From NCBI GenBank assembly GCA_017390245.1, contig JAFPCE010000099.1:1-40097 (forward strand): DNA of 40,097 nt, given 5' to 3'. A program made the position numbers and the translations under genes. Source of the stretch: Selenomonadaceae bacterium. GTDB taxonomy: Bacteria; Bacillota; Negativicutes; Selenomonadales; Selenomonadaceae. Below, piece after piece: positions 10,529 to 32,581 of the stretch (within the stretch, counting starts at the first letter, position 1; each line of letters starts with the position of its first letter). The notes under the pieces were generated by a model. The model was not told the DNA's origin. It worked only from the letters and a program-made list of their open reading frames with translations, and ran no database searches.

Positions 10529-11461
10529 TTATTCGGAGAATAATGGAGTGGAGAGATAGCGGTCACCGTTATCAGGCAGGAGAACTACAATGGTTTTGCC
10601 TTTGTTTTCTGGGCGGCGGGCCAGCTCAATAGCAGCTGTTAAGGCAGCGCCAGAGGAAATACCGATTAGAAGGCCTTCTGCATGGGAGAACTGGCGGCCA
10701 TATTTAAAGGCATCTTCATTGGCTATAGGCAGGATTTCGTCCAGAAGCTTAGTGTCTAAGGTGTCCGGTACGAAGCCAGCACCAATGCCCTGAATCTTGT
10801 GAGGACCAGCTACGCCTTTGCTCAGTACAGGAGAGGTGGCAGGCTCCACAGCTACAATCTTAATATCAGGATTCTGTTCCTTGAGGTAGCTGCCTACACC
10901 AGTAATAGTGCCGCCAGTGCCTACACCTGCTACGAAGAAATCAAGCTTGCCCTCAGTGTCCCTCCAGATTTCAGGACCGGTGGTGGATTTATGGGTAGCT
11001 GGATTGGCAGGATTAGTGAACTGGGATGGGATAAAAGCATGAGGAATGGTCTTAGACAGCTCTTCCGCCTTTTCAATAGCACCCTTCATGCCCTTGCTGC
11101 CATCGGTGAGGACAATTTCTGCACCATAGGCCTTCAGCATGTTGCGGCGCTCTACAGACATGGTTTCTGGCATGGTGAGGATAGCACGGTAGCCCTTGGC
11201 TGCTGCTACGCTTGCCAGGCCGATGCCGGTGTTGCCACTGGTAGGCTCAATGATGACGGAATCAGGAGCCAGCAATCCTTTGGCCTCAGCATCTTCAATC
11301 ATTGCCTGGGCAATACGGTCCTTGACGCTGCCAGCTGGATTTAAATACTCCAGCTTAACCAGAATATTTGCTTCAAGATTATTGGCCTTAATGAAATTAT
11401 TTGCACGGAGTAAAGGGGTATTACCAATTAATTCAGTTACGCTATTGTAAATTTTAGCCAT
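10529..11461 (-). CDS. cysK: Cysteine synthase A (O-acetylserine sulfhydrylase)
   Basis: [23 protein letters not shown] (PLP Lys), [36 protein letters not shown]; AAGGAG RBS before ATG 11461. Confidence 0.96.
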
Positions 11462-11488
11462 ATTGAACATCTCCTTCTTGTACCTCAC

Positions 11489-11543
11489 TAAACATATATG
11501 ATTGCTATGTTTATATAATAATCATTTGGAGAAGCTTTGTCAA
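11489..11543 (-). promoter_or_regulatory. cysK sigma-A promoter plus downstream Rrf2-type operator
   Basis: TTGACA (11543-11538), 17 bp, TATTAT (11520-11515). Palindrome TAAACATA-N9-TATGTTTA at 11489-11513. Confidence 0.75.
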
Positions 11544-11565
11544 TAGTATAAATAAAATTTTTTTC

Positions 11566-11618
11566 TAAACATATAAATTAACTATGCTATTGATTTTTGC
11601 ATGGGTATATTTTATCAT
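11566..11618 (+). promoter_or_regulatory. Second Rrf2-type operator plus promoter of the regulator gene
   Basis: TAAACATA-N9-TATGCTAT at 11566-11590, abutting TTGATT (11590-11595), 17 bp, TATCAT (11613-11618). Confidence 0.65.
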
Positions 11619-11669
11619 TATATACAGAAGAAATGATTAGGGATAATTATAAGGAAACGAGGCGATACT

Positions 11670-12116
11670 ATGCGTATTTCAGCCAAGGGCCGCTATGGAC
11701 TGGCTGCTATGACACATCTGGCACAGTGTTATCAGGCAGATATGCCGATTACCATCATCAGCATTGCGGAGAAGATGGGGATTTCTAAAATTTATCTGGA
11801 GCAGGTTTTTTCATTGTTAAAGAGGGCCGGTCTGGTAAATTCCATTAAAGGAGCTCAGGGGGGCTATCAGCTGGCCAGCCAGCCACAGGATATCAGCGCC
11901 TATGATGTGCTGGCGGCTATAGAAACTTCTTTGACAGAGGAGACTGCTGCCACTGTGGCAGAAACCAGCAGCCTGCTGGAGGAAGCTATGCAGAAGCAGG
12001 TTTTTGCCAAGCTGGATGAGGCGGTAAAGGCAGCTTTAGCAGATGTGTCTTTAGCAGATTTAAACCAGTATATAGAAAGCAAATCTGCTTCTGATGAATT
12101 GATGTATTTTATTTAA
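11670..12116 (+). CDS. Rrf2 family transcriptional regulator, CymR-like
   Basis: MRISAKGRYGL, ISKIYLEQVFSLLKRAGLVNSIKGAQGGYQL; lacks the IscR Cys triad; ends LMYFI; divergent from cysK. Confidence 0.88.
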   Translation: MRISAKGRYGLAAMTHLAQCYQADMPITIISIAEKMGISKIYLEQVFSLLKRAGLVNSIKGAQGGYQLASQPQDISAYDVLAAIETSLTEETAATVAETSSLLEEAMQKQVFAKLDEAVKAALADVSLADLNQYIESKSASDELMYFI

Positions 12117-12212: not shown

Positions 12213-12638
12213 ATGAAATATGAGTTTACAGATGAATATCTGACTGGCATAGAGTTAATTGATACTGAACATGCCCACCTTTTTGAATTAGCTAATAAGG
12301 CTTATGATTTGCTGACAGATCAGTTTGCCTTAGATAAATATGATCGTATTGCTGCTCTTTTGGAGGAGCTGCGTGAATATACTAAAACCCATTTTGCCCA
12401 TGAAGAGGAATTTATGGAAAGCATTAATTTCCGCCATATCTGGAGCGAAAAGCATCAGCATATTACTTTTGTTAATAGGCTGGAGTCCATTGACTTAAAG
12501 GCTATGGATGAAAACCAGCAGGAGCATCTCATGGAAATTATTGAGTTCCTGGCCCTGTGGCTCCAGGGGCATATTAAGGGTGCTGATAAGCGCATTGGTA
12601 CATATTATGATTCTCTGCCAGATGAAGCAAAAGCATAA
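12213..12638 (+). CDS. Single-domain bacteriohemerythrin
   Basis: TGIELIDTEH, HFAHEEEFM, QH, WLQGHIKGAD di-iron ligand pattern; GGAGG RBS. Confidence 0.9.
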   Translation: MKYEFTDEYLTGIELIDTEHAHLFELANKAYDLLTDQFALDKYDRIAALLEELREYTKTHFAHEEEFMESINFRHIWSEKHQHITFVNRLESIDLKAMDENQQEHLMEIIEFLALWLQGHIKGADKRIGTYYDSLPDEAKA

Positions 12639-12722: not shown

Positions 12723-12817
12723 ATAACTATAAAGACCCAGCATGTGAGCAGCATGCTGGGCCTTTATAGTGTGTATTATGTGTATTATATTTAGGAGAGT
12801 CCTTCTTTGAAGGTCTG
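12723..12817 (-). ncRNA. Candidate Fur-repressed small RNA (~95 nt) with anti-SD seed
   Basis: Own promoter and own 19-bp terminal hairpin (12726-12770; G-U pair only on the minus strand); no real ORF; CCUUC/GAAGG hairpin followed by ACUCUCCUAAA. Ends are approximate. Confidence 0.65.
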
Positions 12818-12822
12818 GATAT

Positions 12823-12851
12823 AATATAGCATATATGAGAATAATTATCAA
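12823..12851 (-). promoter_or_regulatory. Sigma-A promoter with overlapping Fur box
   Basis: TTGATA (12851-12846), 17 bp, TATATT (12828-12823) with extended TG. TGATAAT-T-ATTCTCA (12850-12836) has one mismatch to the 7-1-7 Fur consensus TGATAATnATTATCA. Confidence 0.75.
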
Positions 12852-12992: not shown

Positions 12993-14348
12993 TTACTGCC
13001 GTGGCGTAAAGTTGTTGAAGCGGGTAAATTCCTTCTGGAAGTATAGCTTCACTGTGTCTACAGGACCATTACGATGCTTGGCAATAATAACCTCCGTAAT
13101 ATTTTTTTCTGCTGTTTCCGGGTCGTAGTAATCTTCACGGTACAGGAACATAACGATATCAGCATCCTGCTCCAGAGAACCAGATTCACGCAGGTCACTG
13201 AGCATTGGACGCTTAATCTGGCGTGATTCAACACTGCGGCTCAGCTGGGAAAGGGCAATAACTGGCACGTTAAGCTCACGGGCCAGACCCTTCAGGGAAC
13301 GGGAAATTTCAGCAATCTCTGCCTGGCGGTTATCAGCATTTTTCTTGCTGCCAGAGCCCTGCATCAGCTGCAAATAGTCAATGATAATCAAATCCAGACC
13401 GTGCTGGGCTTTAAGGCGTCTGGCCTTGGAGCGCAGCTCGTTTACCTGGATGTTCGTGGTGTCATCTATGTAGATTGGGGCTTGGGAAATCATGCCTCCG
13501 GCTGTCAGGAGACGGTTCCATTCTTCATCGCCAATATCGCCAATACGGAGCTTCTGGGAATCAATACCGCCTTCAGAACAGAGCATACGCTGAACCAGCT
13601 GGCTCTTTGACATTTCCAGGGAGAAGAAAGCCACAGATTTTTTGGCCTTTAAGGCTACATTAGCGGCAATGTTCAGAGTAAAGGCAGTTTTACCCATACT
13701 TGGGCGGGCTGCAACTAAAATTAAGTCTGATGGCTGCAGGCCAGAGGTCAGTTTATCCAAATCGGAAAAGGATGTTGGAATACCGGTAATCTGTCCCTTG
13801 TTGCCATAGAGAAAATCAATTTTGGATACAGTAGTGAGTATAACCTCAGAAATGGGAGTGAAATCACCAGAGCTGTGCTGGGATGAAGCACCGAGAATGG
13901 CTTTTTCGGCCTTATCCATGATGACAGGTACTTCCTCTGCACCTTCAAAGGCCATAGCAGAAATATCGTTAGCTGCATTAATCAGGGCGCGGAGCTCTGA
14001 TTTTTCCCGGACGATGTTGGCATAATAGGTTGCATTGGCTGCAGATGGCACAGTATTTGGCAGGCTGCCAATAAAACCTGCACCGCCTACACGTTCCAGC
14101 ATGTTATCCTTATTAAGCTGGTCAGTCAGGGTTACCATGTCTACAGCAATGTTATTGTTAGCCATATTGATAATGGTATCGTAGATAATGCGGTGGGCAT
14201 CACGATAGAAATCGTTGCCGCCAATGAGCTCCGATACCTCAGAAATAGCTTCCTTCCGCAGCATCATGGCACCTAAAACGGACTTTTCAGCCTCTATGTT
14301 ATTAGGTGGCACAGCCTTGGCAGGGTTAGTAGTATCGTTATTGGGCAT
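12993..14348 (-). CDS. dnaB: Replicative DNA helicase
   Basis: PPNNIEAEKSVLG, AARPSMGKTAF (Walker A), FSLEM, IIDYLQLM, LSQLSR, DLRESGSLEQDAD, KHRNGP. Confidence 0.97.
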   Translation of the reverse strand: MPNNDTTNPAKAVPPNNIEAEKSVLGAMMLRKEAISEVSELIGGNDFYRDAHRIIYDTIINMANNNIAVDMVTLTDQLNKDNMLERVGGAGFIGSLPNTVPSAANATYYANIVREKSELRALINAANDISAMAFEGAEEVPVIMDKAEKAILGASSQHSSGDFTPISEVILTTVSKIDFLYGNKGQITGIPTSFSDLDKLTSGLQPSDLILVAARPSMGKTAFTLNIAANVALKAKKSVAFFSLEMSKSQLVQRMLCSEGGIDSQKLRIGDIGDEEWNRLLTAGGMISQAPIYIDDTTNIQVNELRSKARRLKAQHGLDLIIIDYLQLMQGSGSKKNADNRQAEIAEISRSLKGLARELNVPVIALSQLSRSVESRQIKRPMLSDLRESGSLEQDADIVMFLYREDYYDPETAEKNITEVIIAKHRNGPVDTVKLYFQKEFTRFNNFTPRQ

Positions 14349-24645: not shown

Positions 24646-24692
24646 GCAGGAGCAGGATCGTTTCATGTGTGTTATTTATGTAGGAGAAAATT

Positions 24693-25454
24693 ATGCTTGA
24701 GCTGAAAAATGTGACCTATCAGGTTACAGAAAACAACACTAGCAAGAATATTCTGGACAAAATGAACCTGGTGATTCCTGATGATAAATTCATAGTTATC
24801 ACTGGACCTAATGGTGGTGGCAAGTCCACCCTGGCTAAGACCATTATGGGCATTAACCCTATTACTGAAGGCCAGCTGATTTTTGATGGCCAGGATATTA
24901 CTGAGAAGAATATTACTGAAAGAGCTAAGCTGGGCATCAGCTTTGCTTTCCAGCAGCCAGTTCATTTTAAGGGCATTAAGGTTATTGATTTGCTGCGTCT
25001 GGCAACTGGCACTAATCTGTCTGTGGCCAAGGCCTGCGATTATCTCTCTAAGGTAGGTCTCTGTGCAAAGGAATACATCCAGAGAGAGGTGAATGCCTCT
25101 CTTTCCGGTGGTGAGCTGAAGCGCATTGAGATTGCTACAGTTCTGGCAAGAGGAACGAAGTTTTCTATTTTTGATGAGCCAGAGGCAGGCATTGATATCT
25201 GGAGTTTCCAGAATCTGATACAGGTTTTTGAAAATATCCGTGCCACTATTAAGGGAACTGTTTTGATTATTTCCCATCAGGAGCGTATTTTAAATATTGC
25301 AGATGAGATTATTGTCATTGAAAATGGCAAGGTGAAAAAGCAGGGTCCAAGAGAAGAAATTCTGCCAGAGCTGCTGGGAACTGCAGCTGCTATTAATGCA
25401 GGCTGTTCTAAGCTGGTACCTGAGGAGAAAAAAGCAGAGGAGTGTGATATCTGA
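24693..25454 (+). CDS. SufC-like ABC ATPase of a minimal SUF-like system (SmsC-type)
   Basis: GPNGGGKST, GISFAFQQP, LSGGELKRIEIA, FDEPEAGID, ISH; translationally coupled to a SufBD-family gene. Confidence 0.85.
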   Translation: MLELKNVTYQVTENNTSKNILDKMNLVIPDDKFIVITGPNGGGKSTLAKTIMGINPITEGQLIFDGQDITEKNITERAKLGISFAFQQPVHFKGIKVIDLLRLATGTNLSVAKACDYLSKVGLCAKEYIQREVNASLSGGELKRIEIATVLARGTKFSIFDEPEAGIDIWSFQNLIQVFENIRATIKGTVLIISHQERILNIADEIIVIENGKVKKQGPREEILPELLGTAAAINAGCSKLVPEEKKAEECDI

Positions 25455-26383
25455 TGCTGGATAAGATTCAATTGCAGCTTTTAACGGAAATTGCTGATTT
25501 GCACGGTGTGCCAGAGGGGGCTTATAATATCCGTGCCAATGGTGAGAAGGCAGCCCGCAATACTACTGCCAATATTGATATTGTTACTAAAACTGATGGC
25601 AAGAGCGGTATTGATGTGCACGTTAAGCCAGGCACTAAGAACGAAAGTGTCCATATACCTGTAGTGCTCAGTGAGAGCGGCATCAAGGAAACCGTATATA
25701 ATGATTTCTACATTGGTGAAGGTGCTGATGTGGTTATTGTGGCAGGCTGCGGTATTCATAATTGTGGTAACCAGGACTCCCAGCACGATGGTGTACACCG
25801 CTTTTTTGTAGGGAAGAATGCAAAAATCCGCTATGTGGAAAAGCATTATGGCGAAGGTGATGCCAAGAGCAGTGGCAAGCGCATATTAAACCCTGTAACT
25901 GAGGTATATCAGGAAGAGGGCAGCTATGTAGATATGGAAATGGTGCAGATAAAGGGCGTTGACTCTACTGAGCGTGTTACCAAGGCAGAGCTGGCAGCTG
26001 GCGCTACCATGATTGTCCATGAGCGTTTAATGACTCATGGCCAGCAGTCTGCTACCAGTATTTATGAGGTAGCCTTAAATGGTGATGGCTCTAGTACAGA
26101 TGTTATTTCCCGTTCTGTTGCCAAGGATGAGTCTCAGCAGGTTTTTGAGGCAGCTATCGTAGGCAATGCAGTGTGCAATGGCCATGCAGAATGTGATGCC
26201 ATTATCATGGACAAGGCTCATGTAGTGGCAGTGCCAAAGCTGGATGCCCGCAACGTGGATGCAGCTTTGATACATGAGGCAGCTATTGGCAAGATTGCCG
26301 GTGACCAGCTTATCAAGCTGATGTCGCTGGGCTTAACTGAGGCTGAAGCAGAGGAGCAGATTATAGGCGGCTTCCTGCGTTAA
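25454..26383 (+). CDS. Short SufB/SufD-family scaffold (SmsB-type)
   Basis: Beta-helix pattern; GHAECDAII; LIHEAAIGKIAGDQLIKLMSLGLTEAEAEEQIIGGFL. Confidence 0.88.
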   Translation: MLDKIQLQLLTEIADLHGVPEGAYNIRANGEKAARNTTANIDIVTKTDGKSGIDVHVKPGTKNESVHIPVVLSESGIKETVYNDFYIGEGADVVIVAGCGIHNCGNQDSQHDGVHRFFVGKNAKIRYVEKHYGEGDAKSSGKRILNPVTEVYQEEGSYVDMEMVQIKGVDSTERVTKAELAAGATMIVHERLMTHGQQSATSIYEVALNGDGSSTDVISRSVAKDESQQVFEAAIVGNAVCNGHAECDAIIMDKAHVVAVPKLDARNVDAALIHEAAIGKIAGDQLIKLMSLGLTEAEAEEQIIGGFLR

Positions 26384-27870: not shown

Positions 27871-27900
27871 TAAGAGAGCTTTTAGGAGAGTATATACATT

Positions 27901-28686
27901 ATGAGCACAAATTTATTGGCAATTAAAAATCTGCATGCCATTGTGGCAGGCAGTAACGCACAGGAAAATAACAGCCAGCAGGAGGTAAAGGAAATTCTCC
28001 ATGGCATTGATTTAAATATTGGCCAGGGAGAGGTGCACGTTATCCTTGGTCCTAATGGTTCTGGCAAGTCTACTCTGATGAACGTCATTATGGGGCATCC
28101 CAGCTATGAAGTAACTGAGGGCAGTATCGAGCTGGAGGGTGAGGACATTAAGGAGCTGCCTGTATATCAGCGCAGCCGCAAGGGCATATTCTTATCCTTC
28201 CAGAATCCTGAGGAAATACCTGGCATTACCGTAGAAAATCTGCTGCGTACTGCTAAGCAGGCTGTAACAGGAAAACCAGTAAAATTGATGAAATTCCGCA
28301 AGGAGCTGGAAAATACCATGACAGAGCTGCAAATAGATAAGTCCTATGGCCAGCGCTACGTGAATGTAGGCTTTTCTGGCGGTGAAAAAAAGCGCAACGA
28401 AATCCTCCAGCTTTTAATGCTGCAGCCGAAGCTGGCACTGCTGGATGAGACAGATTCCGGACTGGATGTAGATGCAGTGCAGATTGTTTCCCAGGGCATT
28501 CAGAAATTTCACAATGAAAATAATGCCTGTCTGATTATTACCCACAATACCCGCATTTTAGAGCAGCTGCAGGTGGATAAGGTGCATGTCCTGTTACAGG
28601 GCAAAATTGTGGCTGAGGGAGGCCAGGAGCTGATAGATAAAATTAACAGCCAGGGCTTTGGCTTTCTACAGAATGAGCAGGAGTAG
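27901..28686 (+). CDS. sufC: Fe-S cluster assembly ATPase
   Basis: GPNGSGKST, GIFLSFQNPEEIPG, GFSGGEKKRNEILQ, LDETDSGLDVD. Confidence 0.96.
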   Translation: MSTNLLAIKNLHAIVAGSNAQENNSQQEVKEILHGIDLNIGQGEVHVILGPNGSGKSTLMNVIMGHPSYEVTEGSIELEGEDIKELPVYQRSRKGIFLSFQNPEEIPGITVENLLRTAKQAVTGKPVKLMKFRKELENTMTELQIDKSYGQRYVNVGFSGGEKKRNEILQLLMLQPKLALLDETDSGLDVDAVQIVSQGIQKFHNENNACLIITHNTRILEQLQVDKVHVLLQGKIVAEGGQELIDKINSQGFGFLQNEQE

Positions 28687-30101
28687 TGAGTAATATGGAA
28701 AAAAAGAAAACCTATGTGGAGGATATTGAACGTACCTTATACGATATCCGCAATGAAGACCGCTCCAGCTACAAGGTAGAGCAGGGGCTGACTGAACAGA
28801 TTATCAGGGATATTGCCGCTAAAAAGCATGACCCTCAGTGGATGCTGGACTTCCGGCTGGGTTCCCTGCAGGAATATTACCGGCAGAGCCTGCCAGAATG
28901 GGGGCCGGATTTATCTGAGCTGAATATGGACCAGATTGTTACCTATGTGCAGCCTGATGCTAAAATGGCTGGCCGGTGGGAGGATGTGCCTGAGGACATC
29001 AAGGACACCTTTGACAGACTGGGGATTCCCGAGGCAGAGCAGACTTCCCTGGCAGGTGTAGGAGCCCAGTATGATTCAGAGGTGGTATACCACAGCATAC
29101 AGGAGGATTTAGTCAAGCAGGGGGTTATCTATACAGATATGGAAACAGCCCTCAGGGAGCATGAGGCTATTGTCAGGGAGCATTTCATGCAGCTGGTACC
29201 GCCGAAGGATCACAAATTTGCTGCTCTTCATGGTGCGGTATGGTCTGGGGGATCCTTTGTCTATGTGCCAGAAGGCGTAAAGGTAGAGATTCCGCTGCAG
29301 TCATATTTCCGTCTCAATGCTGCTGGTGCAGGGCAGTTTGAACATACCTTGATTATTCTGGAAAAAAATTCCAGCCTGCATTTTATCGAAGGCTGTAGTG
29401 CACCAAAATACAATGTAACCAACCTGCATGCCGGTTGTGTGGAGCTGTTTGTGGGAGAAGGAGCAAGGCTCAGATATTCCACCATTGAAAACTGGTCCCG
29501 CAATATGATGAATTTAAATACTAAGCGAGCCATTGTGGAGAAGAATGGCATCATTGAATGGGTGTCAGGTTCCTTTGGTTCCCATGTATCTATGCTGTAT
29601 CCTTGCAGCGTACTGCATGGGGAAAATGCCCGCTGCGAATTTACGGGCGTGACCTTTGCCTCTAAGGGGCAGAATCTTGATACTGGTGCCAGCGTCATTC
29701 ACGCAGCACCATATACCTCTGCTAATATCAGCACCCGCACTATATCTAAATCGGGTGGCCAGGCTACCTACAGAAGTGCAGTAAAGGTAACAGAGAAGGC
29801 ACATCACGCGAAATGCTCTGTTAACTGTGAATCCCTGATGCTGGATGATATTTCCCGGTCAGATACACTGCCGGCCATGGATATCCAGGGTGACGAGGCA
29901 GATATCGGCCATGAAGCAACCATTGGCCGTATCAGTGATGAAGCGGTATTTTATCTCATGAGCCGCGGCATCAGCGAGGATGAAGCCAAGGCCATGATTG
30001 TCCGGGGCTTTGTAGAGCCTATTGCCAAAGAACTGCCACTGGAGTATGCAGTAGAAATGAACAATCTGGTTAATATTGAGCTGGAAGGTGCAATGGGTTA
30101 A
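28686..30101 (+). CDS. sufB: Fe-S cluster assembly scaffold
   Basis: WEDVPEDIKDTFDRLGIPEAE, GVGAQYDSE, GQFEHTLII, EGCSAP, HEATIGRI. Start GTG 28686 or ATG 28695. Confidence 0.96.
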   Translation: MSNMEKKKTYVEDIERTLYDIRNEDRSSYKVEQGLTEQIIRDIAAKKHDPQWMLDFRLGSLQEYYRQSLPEWGPDLSELNMDQIVTYVQPDAKMAGRWEDVPEDIKDTFDRLGIPEAEQTSLAGVGAQYDSEVVYHSIQEDLVKQGVIYTDMETALREHEAIVREHFMQLVPPKDHKFAALHGAVWSGGSFVYVPEGVKVEIPLQSYFRLNAAGAGQFEHTLIILEKNSSLHFIEGCSAPKYNVTNLHAGCVELFVGEGARLRYSTIENWSRNMMNLNTKRAIVEKNGIIEWVSGSFGSHVSMLYPCSVLHGENARCEFTGVTFASKGQNLDTGASVIHAAPYTSANISTRTISKSGGQATYRSAVKVTEKAHHAKCSVNCESLMLDDISRSDTLPAMDIQGDEADIGHEATIGRISDEAVFYLMSRGISEDEAKAMIVRGFVEPIAKELPLEYAVEMNNLVNIELEGAMG

Positions 30102-30113
30102 CAGGAGGAAAAA

Positions 30114-30947
30114 ATGGCAGAAAAAATATTTAGCAAAATTCCTATGGCCACATGGCGCTGGCTAGGTGTTAATAACGCCACGGCAGAGGAAGAGCTTCTG
30201 GCAGTGGCAGACACCCGCAGCTTTAAGATACCAGCGGGGACAGATAAAGAGGCGGTAGTGGTCATCAGGCAGGAGCAATATGGCAAAATACAGGTGAAGC
30301 TAGGTGAAAATTCCAGACTGAAGCTGACTTATGTACAGCTGGCAGATACAGATAAGGATTATGCCGGGGAAATAGAAATACAGCTATCTGACGGAGCTCA
30401 GCTGGAAATGGCAGCTGTAGAGGCTGGGGGCAAAAAGGCTGTTTCCAAGGTGCTGGTAAATCTGGCAGGCAATAGCTCCAGGGCAGATGTGTCAGTGCTG
30501 TACCTGGGAGATAAGCAGCGGGTACTGGATATGAATTATGTTATGGTACAGTCTGGGAAAAAATGTGAAGCTAAGCTGGAGGTTTATGGTGCACTTTTAG
30601 ATAAGGCAGAAAAAATCTTCCGGGGGACTTTAGATTTTAAACGGGGAGCTAAGGGGGCAGCTGGCCAAGAAAAGGAGCAGGTGGTAGTTTTATCCAGCCA
30701 GGTAAGAAACCGCTCTGTACCGCTGATGCTGTCTGGTGAATCAGAGGTAGATGGCCATCATGCAGTATCCATAGGTAAAATTGATGAAGCTAAGCTGTAT
30801 TACCTCATGAGCCGTGGCCTGGAAATGGCTGAGGCGAAAAAACTGGTGGTGGAGGCAGCCTTTGCACCAGTAATGAGCAGAATAACTGATACAGAACTGC
30901 AGGGAGAATTGCAGCATTATATAAAGGAGCGATTGTCTGATGCTTAA
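30114..30947 (+). CDS. sufD: Fe-S cluster assembly protein SufD (short form)
   Basis: FRGTLDF, NRSVPLML, GHHAVSIGKIDEAKLYYLMSRGL; operon position. Confidence 0.9.
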   Translation: MAEKIFSKIPMATWRWLGVNNATAEEELLAVADTRSFKIPAGTDKEAVVVIRQEQYGKIQVKLGENSRLKLTYVQLADTDKDYAGEIEIQLSDGAQLEMAAVEAGGKKAVSKVLVNLAGNSSRADVSVLYLGDKQRVLDMNYVMVQSGKKCEAKLEVYGALLDKAEKIFRGTLDFKRGAKGAAGQEKEQVVVLSSQVRNRSVPLMLSGESEVDGHHAVSIGKIDEAKLYYLMSRGLEMAEAKKLVVEAAFAPVMSRITDTELQGELQHYIKERLSDA

Positions 30948-32172
30948 CCAGGATTATAAAAAGGATTTTCCTATATTGCAGCAAACCATGCAGGGAAAGC
31001 CTTTGGTATATTTAGATAACGGAGCTACTACCCAGAAGCCTGACAGTGTCATTGCAGCAGTCAGGGATTATTATACTCATGCTAATGCCAATCCTCACCG
31101 GGGAGCCTATGAGCTCAGTGTTCAGGCCACTGATATTTATGAAAACGCCAGAGTAAGGACTCAGAAATTTATTAATGCCCAGCACAGCCATGAGATTATT
31201 TTTACGAAAAATGCTACAGAGTCATTAAATCTCATTGCTTACAGTTATGGACTCAGTACCCTGCAGCCAGGGGATGAAGTGGTGATTTCCATAGCGGAGC
31301 ACCACAGCAACCTGGTGCCATGGCAGAGAGTGTGCCAGCAGAAGGGAGCTACGTTAAAGTATATATATCTGGAAAAGGATGGCAATTTATCCCAGCAGGA
31401 TATAAATGAAAAAATCACTGCCAAGACAAAAATCGTGGCAGTGACTCAGGTGTCTAATATTTTAGGACTGATAAATCCAGTAAAGGAAATTGTAAAAAAG
31501 GCCCATGCAGCAGGTGCTGTAGTGGTAGTCGACGGTTCTCAGTCAGTACCTCATATAAAGGTGGATGTACAGGAGCTGGATGCAGATTTCTTTGTGTTCT
31601 CCGGCCATAAGATGCTGTCTCCTATGGGCATTGGGGTGCTGTATGGCAAGGAAGCCCTCTTAAATGCTATGCCGCCATTTCTCATGGGTGGTGACATGAT
31701 TGACTATGTGGAGGAGCAGCATACCGAATACGCTCCCCTGCCAGCAAAATTTGAAGCAGGTACCCAGAATGTAGGTGGTGCAGCAGGATTGGTGGCTGCT
31801 ATAGATTATCTGGAAAATTTCGGCATGGAGAAGGTGGCAGATATTGAGGCTGAGCTGGTGCAATACGCCTTAGAAAAGCTGGCAGATATGCCATATATTG
31901 AGCTGTATGGCTGCAATAGCAGGCTTGACAACAAAACAGGCATTATTGCCTTTAATGTCAGGGATGTGCATCCTCACGATGTGGCGACTATCCTGGATGC
32001 CCAGGGGGTAGCTGTACGGGCAGGCCACCACTGTGCCCAGCCGCTTTTAGCTTATTTAGGACAGAATGCCACTTGCCGGGCCAGCTTCTATTTTTATAAT
32101 ACTAAAGAGGATGTGGACAGATGGCTGGCTGCTTTAAGCAAGGTGAGAGGAGTGTTAGGTTATGGAGCTTGA
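30940..32172 (+). CDS. sufS: Cysteine desulfurase, SufS type
   Basis: YLDNGATTQKP, EHHSN, FSGHKML (PLP Lys), RAGHHCAQP. Confidence 0.96.
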   Translation: MLNQDYKKDFPILQQTMQGKPLVYLDNGATTQKPDSVIAAVRDYYTHANANPHRGAYELSVQATDIYENARVRTQKFINAQHSHEIIFTKNATESLNLIAYSYGLSTLQPGDEVVISIAEHHSNLVPWQRVCQQKGATLKYIYLEKDGNLSQQDINEKITAKTKIVAVTQVSNILGLINPVKEIVKKAHAAGAVVVVDGSQSVPHIKVDVQELDADFFVFSGHKMLSPMGIGVLYGKEALLNAMPPFLMGGDMIDYVEEQHTEYAPLPAKFEAGTQNVGGAAGLVAAIDYLENFGMEKVADIEAELVQYALEKLADMPYIELYGCNSRLDNKTGIIAFNVRDVHPHDVATILDAQGVAVRAGHHCAQPLLAYLGQNATCRASFYFYNTKEDVDRWLAALSKVRGVLGYGA

Positions 32173-32581
32173 CAGCATTTATACAGAGCTGATTGCCGAG
32201 CACAGCCGTTCAGCAGAAAACAAACATCCCCTGGCCTTTCCTACAGTTACACAGAAGGGCCGCAATCCCAGCTGCGGTGATGAAATTACTTTGCAGCTGC
32301 AGGTGAAAGATGGTGTTATAGAGGATGCAGCCTTTACTGGTATAGGCTGTGCCATTTCCCAGGCTTCTACCTCGATTATGATTGATTTAATTAAGGGAGA
32401 GACTGTGGAGCAGGCTAAACATCTGGCAGATTTATTCCTGAAGATGATTAAGCGGGAAATTAATGATGAAGCAGAGCTGGAGGAGCTGGATGAAGCTCTG
32501 GCCTTAAAAAATATTTCTAATATGCCAGCCAGGGTGAAATGTGCTGTGCTTTCCTGGCATACACTGCAGCAGATAATATAA
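32162..32581 (+). CDS. sufU: SUF system sulfur-transfer protein (NifU-like)
   Basis: NPSCGD, GCAISQAS, PARVKCAVLSWH. Confidence 0.95.
   Translation: MELDSIYTELIAEHSRSAENKHPLAFPTVTQKGRNPSCGDEITLQLQVKDGVIEDAAFTGIGCAISQASTSIMIDLIKGETVEQAKHLADLFLKMIKREINDEAELEELDEALALKNISNMPARVKCAVLSWHTLQQII

Follow-up and report, generated by a model that had tools for sequence, protein, structure and literature searches.

Introduction

Iron-sparing small RNAs (sRNAs) are reported to have arisen separately in several lineages (PMC9410917). RyhB (~90 nt) and PrrF of Proteobacteria are repressed by Fur, occur as paralogous copies, target iron enzymes and Fe-S assembly, and depend on Hfq (PMC13750123, PMC13501541). 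FsrA of Bacillus subtilis is linked to Fur, spares iron through a C-rich motif directed at the Shine-Dalgarno (SD) sequence, and requires FbpA, FbpB and FbpC (PMC9410917). IsrR of Staphylococcus combines promoter Fur boxes, an intrinsic terminator and single-stranded C-rich pairing regions (three C-rich regions and three stem-loops) with iron-enzyme mRNA targets, and is conserved within its clade, a single genus (PMC9410917). A 2026 review describes the finding of iron-sparing sRNAs in gut commensals as an open task, and the passages of it considered here name neither Negativicutes nor Selenomonas, Veillonella or Megamonas (PMC13750123).

We analysed a window of 40,097 nt, the whole stretch of contig JAFPCE010000099.1 from a Selenomonadaceae bacterium (GCA_017390245.1). 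A preliminary description, made from the letters alone, had read the region between a hemerythrin gene and dnaB as encoding the equivalent of these sRNAs in a Negativicute. We consider it highly probable that the region holds a conserved stand-alone sRNA gene, which would be repressed by Fur in plentiful iron and whose product would pair over the ribosome binding sites (RBSs) of iron-protein mRNAs and block their translation. It resembles RyhB and PrrF in approximate length, predicted Fur repression, kinds of predicted target and paralogous copies; where those RNAs depend on Hfq, which might also act here, this genome has an Hfq fragment at a contig end, and the RNA matches neither family in Rfam. 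The Fur link, the predicted iron sparing and the C-rich motif complementary to the SD recall FsrA, from which it differs in lacking an Rfam match and in having rubrerythrin as its best predicted target. With IsrR it shares a Fur-type box at the promoter, an intrinsic terminator, single-stranded C-rich pairing, predicted iron-enzyme mRNA targets and conservation within a clade, but it has one 5′ hairpin, one C-rich stretch and a long two-part seed, and spans a family of anaerobes instead of one genus; these two RNAs were set apart by description and by the absent Rfam match. An Rfam search, as the preliminary description had proposed, gave no family at gathering in the window or in eight homologue loci, tRNAs excepted; of the sRNA models, RsaH alone spanned the RNA, with 17.9 bits where the cut-off is 50 (E 1.9). 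The literature covered, namely titles and abstract openings with subscription papers outside, holds no such RNA for this group, and it may already be present, without a name, among the candidate structured RNAs of supplementary lists. The RNA appears to be a new analogue of RyhB, FsrA and IsrR that evolved independently.

Anatomy of the predicted RNA unit

The locus comprises the following features.

12213..12638, plus strand: hemerythrin gene, convergent, with its own terminator and no overlap with the RNA; predicted pairing weak (-7.6 kcal/mol)
12723..12816, minus strand: predicted sRNA of ~94 nt, both ends predicted (fold, unpaired probability, models R1-R3)
12726..12770, minus strand: terminator hairpin of 19 pairs, loop CUGCUCA at 12751-12745
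12771..12788, minus strand: tandem AUAAUACAC x2, in which the 3′ half of the seed is repeated, seen in this genome only
12779..12800, minus strand: unpaired 22-nt seed, an anti-SD part (12800-12790) plus an AU/AC-rich part
12801..12813, minus strand: 5′ hairpin CCUUC/GAAGG, from folding
12823..12831, minus strand: extended -10, TG-n-TATATT (TG 12831-12830, TATATT 12828-12823)
12836..12850, minus strand: Fur-type 7-1-7 box TGATAAT-T-ATTCTCA over the -35 and spacer, one mismatch to the consensus
12846..12851, minus strand: -35 hexamer TTGATA, followed by a 17-nt spacer
12993..14348, minus strand: dnaB, with a terminator-like site after the gene at 12946-12924

All of the elements named in the preliminary description, from the -35, TG, -10 and box to the hairpin, the anti-SD and the 19-pair stem, lie where it placed them on the minus strand, including a stem G-U pair that becomes an A-C mismatch on the opposite strand. 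Its placing of the unit between the hemerythrin and dnaB terminators also holds, each gene having its own terminator-like site. At the level of sequence, this is a stand-alone non-coding unit with a promoter and an intrinsic terminator, independent of its neighbours. The 94-nt RNA is predicted to have a small hairpin at its 5′ end and a long one at its 3′ end, separated by an open region, with a folding z of -6.2 and 0/200 shuffles equally stable. The computed fold leaves seed and repeat unpaired (mean 0.91), and the anti-SD stretch reads ACUCUCCUAAA (12800-12790, minus). Two earlier observations stand only in part. The tandem repeat is present at 12771-12788, but the 19 relatives read have a single copy followed by (AC)n. 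The statement that there is no real open reading frame overlooks a 120-codon frame (12857-12495) that crosses the region; this frame begins upstream of the predicted start site and matched no NCBIfam family. Contigs assembled from eight RNA runs, a type of contig that drops short RNAs, include some over hemerythrin and dnaB and none over the RNA, and a single 40-nt piece from the RNA runs over the promoter derives from a different sequence. Hemerythrin itself was considered as a target or antisense partner and rejected, given its convergent position, the lack of overlap and the weak pairing. Further upstream, a cysK gene is divergent from a gene for an Rrf2/CymR-like regulator (window 10529-12116).

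Conservation and spread

The genome studied here belongs to Anaerovibrio, a genus of the Selenomonadaceae, in the Negativicutes. A DNA search of 40 relatives found seed-bearing matches in 22 of the 24 other Anaerovibrio genomes, the remaining two having completeness of 80% and 88%. The 22-nt seed core is unchanged in 20 seed-holding loci and invariant in 19/19 aligned Anaerovibrio sequences (alignment A1, which leaves out L011, with its long insert). The TTGA of the -35 is likewise invariant in 27/27 aligned homologues. Around these constant parts the 5′ domain and terminator vary in sequence with their pairing kept, and the flanks vary too. In relatives, the 5′ hairpin is mostly GCUUU...AAAGC around an insert of a few to ~90 nt, and inserts of up to ~90 nt within the 5′ stem are seen in L011, L206, L208, L210, L211 and L218. 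In the terminator, 9 of 10 pairs are altered on both sides, and 88% of alignment cells are paired compared to 37-74% when the structure is slid, both values being for a structure derived from the same alignment. The terminator loop (C/U)UGCUCA (12745-12751) is kept while the stems turn over, with RCTCA found 3′ of the seed in 34/51 loci.

Exact matches to a 20-nt seed pattern number 26, comprising 19 in Anaerovibrio, four in unclassified Selenomonadaceae and three under other names; these last, titled Muribaculaceae, Anaerotignum and Veillonellaceae (L054, L046, L043), probably reflect differences in naming or binning. Cultured carriers are A. lipolyticus DSM 3074 and LB2005, and A. slackiae. 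Model R1, built from the RNA sequence alone with the promoter left out, matches 67/121 family genomes at E 0.05, its weak matches including false ones, and gives up to about six matches in some genomes. Among 24 loci read outside the genus (L062-L064 left out), 19 have a 7-1-7 box with at most two mismatches starting 34-35 nt before the RNA; at our locus the distance from the box to the predicted start is 34 nt. The other five are two with the best box further up, one with three mismatches, one with four, and one false locus. Because R1 held no promoter, boxes at the same distance provide independent support. Model R2 gave E <1e-5 in 21/41 genomes, about one per genus, and with G054 added after reading the count is 22/41 Selenomonadaceae. 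Model R3, which includes the promoter, matches 19/23 family genomes and 1/1 genome of a further family (f5, two tandem copies), and found none among 116 genomes from 24 other families of the class. The preliminary description had made its reading depend on the conservation of box plus seed in relatives, and this is what we see across many genera.

Weak model matches in other families yielded nine loci for reading, none with box and seed, and weak matches in G045, G047, G055, G052, G041 and G058 were rejected on reading. R3 on ten non-carriers gave a single promoter-only piece, positive controls having been run in a separate search. Two individual loci differ in layout. In L213 (G028, another family) the unit and its promoter are present twice, as nearly identical tandem copies, and another Fur-type box with DUF3793-flavodoxin genes follows directly downstream. 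L290 (G043) has seed and terminator, but the ~130 nt upstream of its seed contain neither box nor promoter; it may contain a long insert or derive from a 3′-UTR.

The Fur-type box and the likely regulator

A Fur box overlapping the promoter is a feature of Fur-repressed iron-sparing sRNAs, and in sequence terms it is found here. With a general consensus for the box, we see five sites with at most one mismatch in the 1.76 Mb genome (G000). Two precede an exbB-like gene and one a DUF3793-like gene, the fourth is the RNA's own, and the fifth lies within a coding region; a two-mismatch site is found at a feoA-like gene. These three gene names were assigned by likeness of N-termini. Because the box is so rare and the entire unit is conserved, the stand-alone unit is more than a chance assembly. 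In many relatives a second palindrome, weaker than the first, lies upstream, like the two boxes described for isrR (PMC9410917). Other matches of the promoter in relatives precede DUF3793-flavodoxin and feoAB genes.

The genome has one Fur-like and one PerR-like gene, both under the NCBIfam cut-off, so a genuine trans-acting sRNA that has these targets might instead answer to peroxide or another metal, under the PerR-like paralogue or a different metal sensor. Fur and PerR boxes are alike, and the strongest predicted target is rubrerythrin, a peroxide-defence protein. However, the box of the RNA is of the TGA...TCA type common to feoAB, flavodoxin and exbB-like promoters, several homologues of the RNA gene adjoin feoB, exbBD or DUF3793-flavodoxin genes, and both rubrerythrin genes (G000:C76:21185 and C275:2785) have upstream palindromes of a different form, GGATAAT-n-ATTATC(C/G), likely a PerR site distinct from the Fur box. 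We regard control by a PerR-like or other sensor as very unlikely. Since the box type is common to iron-related promoters and the rubrerythrin genes have a different one, Fur is the likelier regulator of the RNA.

Predicted targets in the same genome

A simple gene caller gave 1693 genes, of which 1617 leaders were ranked by seed duplex energy. Two predicted sites lie in the window.

24666..24687, plus strand: predicted target site at the RBS of the smsC/sufC-like gene 24693-25454, rank 2 of 1617
27881..27891, plus strand: predicted target site at the RBS of sufC, the first gene of sufCBDSU, an 11-nt perfect complement, rank 30

The window thus holds two nearby Fe-S assembly loci, a sufC/sufB-like pair (24693-26383) and a full sufCBDSU (27901-32581), with predicted sites at both first genes. 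Iron proteins, including Fe-S assembly factors and iron-enzyme subunits, account for 13 of the 40 best-pairing leaders compared to 4/40 controls (p 0.013), with iron labels that we assigned from Pfam when the ranking was already known, and for 12/75 once top genes that had been skipped are included again (p 0.037); controls were leaders from seeds with the anti-SD retained and the tail shuffled. The 13 are smsC-like, iron alcohol dehydrogenase, iorA-like, two rubrerythrins, leuC, sdaAB, a hydrogenase-type membrane subunit, nfnA, mrp, sufC, sdhA and sdhC. The iron-protein count leaves out a flavoprotein that has a CX2CX2CX5C motif, and also a tetrapyrrole methylase; in all, 27 of the top 40 leaders fall outside it. 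The rank-1 leader belongs to a PocR-domain chemoreceptor (G000:C35:6967-7986) with no established iron link, which may be a target or may bind a metal cofactor; literature listings established no tie between PocR domains and heme.

Cysteine-motif labels (43 genes, many of them false), chosen independently of the ranking, showed no enrichment in the top 25 or top 50, and a weak signal in the top 100 (7 vs 3.3 +/- 1.4 in 60 shuffles). Most radical-SAM genes rank low in seed pairing. The seed is conserved, predicted to be single-stranded and complementary to iron-protein leaders, with the motif-only test weak. The anti-SD half alone gave no enrichment. A complement to the terminator loop upstream of a seed-type site was found in 3 of 1554 leaders, a frequency that does not support the loop as a second seed.

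Seed-target co-variation across the family

Orthologous leaders were taken from the same 40 genomes, using at most the best 30 loci per gene, for genes chosen from the own-genome top list. The comparison of carriers and non-carriers omits G045, G047, G054 and G055 as ambiguous (another analysis has G054 as a carrier and the other three as non-carriers), and G071 was left out of the lysC test (contig end). Among the matches listed, predicted pairing is stronger in carriers than in non-carriers for rubrerythrin (-16.0 against -11.4 kcal/mol, 18 vs 10 genomes, p 0.008), nfnA (-15.5 against -11.7, 15 vs 12, p 0.003), leuC (-12.7 against -9.6, 16 vs 12, p 0.003) and smsC (-14.0 against -10.3, 10 vs 9, p 0.02), p values that overstate the effect because of relatedness among the genomes and the choice of genes from the top list. 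We see no carrier effect, among the matches listed, for sdhC (p 0.13), leuD, sdhA or 275 neighbouring starts (-9.3/-9.3 kcal/mol), and lysC leaders pair no better in carriers than in non-carriers (-12.0/-13.3 kcal/mol).

Replacing each genome's own seed by those of other genomes gave a further comparison. Among the matches listed, the own seed is favoured by -3.0 kcal/mol at the rubrerythrin leader (0/5000 permutations), by -1.2 at nfnA (p 0.0002) and by -1.1 at smsC (p 0.006, borderline with a composition control at p 0.056), and for rubrerythrin it ranks first for 8/12 distinct seeds. Co-variation is absent, among the same listed matches, for leuC (p 0.24) and sdhC (p 0.11), and also for 165 neighbours (-0.05, p 0.25) and lysC (-0.09, p 0.37); because these last two are negative controls, their result argues against a composition effect. 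The changes are visible in the sequences: the seed CCUACUA of G070 stands opposite the leader UAGUAGG, AUCUACAC of G044 opposite GUGUAGAU, UUCAUACACA of G067 opposite UGUGUAUGAG, and ACAAUACACA of G043 opposite UGUGUAUUGU, and in G074 the seed-leader duplex is unbroken over the whole seed.

Strong complements are also found in some non-carriers, for rubrerythrin in G052 and G058, and for a fumarase-like neighbour in G057, G058 and G068; these may reflect recent loss of the RNA or a homologue missed by the models. That neighbour is conserved upstream of sdhC and, to judge by its N-terminus, likely the beta subunit of a class I fumarase; among the matches listed (L263-L289), its leaders are strongly complementary in ten genomes, three of them non-carriers.

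These data also bear on whether a Fur-controlled RNA might mainly titrate a protein or slow translation broadly through its anti-SD, iron mRNAs being affected only incidentally. The seed does hold a generic anti-SD, several genomes have multiple copies, and the terminator loop is conserved, yet its complement is rare in leaders. Against this, co-variation is specific to iron-gene leaders, and the anti-SD half has no enrichment by itself, which makes titration or a general brake very unlikely. In the mechanism that we prefer, direct pairing with iron-protein mRNAs, iron-loaded Fur would cover the -35, and the RNA would be made when iron falls. The AUAAUACACA half of the seed (AUACACA) would base-pair to a UGUGUAU(U) tract lying 5′ of the SD and give specificity, and the CUCUCCU anti-SD half would cover the AGGAG(A/G) site, so that ribosomes could not load and iron would be spared. 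By co-variation, the best-supported predicted targets are reverse rubrerythrin, nfnA and smsC, followed by leuC, sufC, iron alcohol dehydrogenase, iorA, sdaAB, mrp, sdhCA and the second rubrerythrin.

Genomic context

The preliminary description had proposed building a covariance model from syntenic regions downstream of dnaB. That approach would fail, as dnaB synteny is absent in the relatives, which hold the RNA gene at other loci; in the Anaerovibrio relatives read, it adjoins a family-2 glycosyltransferase gene, near a sodium:solute symporter. Promoter, seed and hairpin stay together at these differing loci, and therefore the gene moves as a unit. That the region encodes no independent RNA, but a bidirectional terminator with a chance promoter, a cis element of its neighbours or an antisense or antitoxin RNA, as its position between converging genes and a hairpin that is also terminator-like on the plus strand could suggest, is extremely unlikely given this constancy amid changing flanks, the separate terminator-like sites of both neighbours, the absence of overlap with a neighbour and the 0 matches to the seed pattern in viral contigs.

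Implications

Overall, the reading of this locus as an iron-sparing sRNA gene of a Negativicute gains support from conservation of box and seed, from iron-protein enrichment and from seed-target co-variation. On balance we lean towards a broader view, that this is an independently evolved iron-sparing sRNA family, the first that our searches could assign to obligately anaerobic Firmicutes, with a long two-part seed, a terminator loop that may be a second contact, and duplication up to about six times in some genera. Its main co-evolving target would be rubrerythrin, such that peroxide defence would require both the release of a PerR-type repressor and sufficient iron. With this finding, a family of anaerobes from rumen and gut has a candidate iron-sparing sRNA, some carriers of which are in culture. 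The natural compensatory changes between seed and target point to direct tests, for which the non-carrier genera are natural controls. In short, the predicted RNA suggests how anaerobes may trade iron against peroxide defence.
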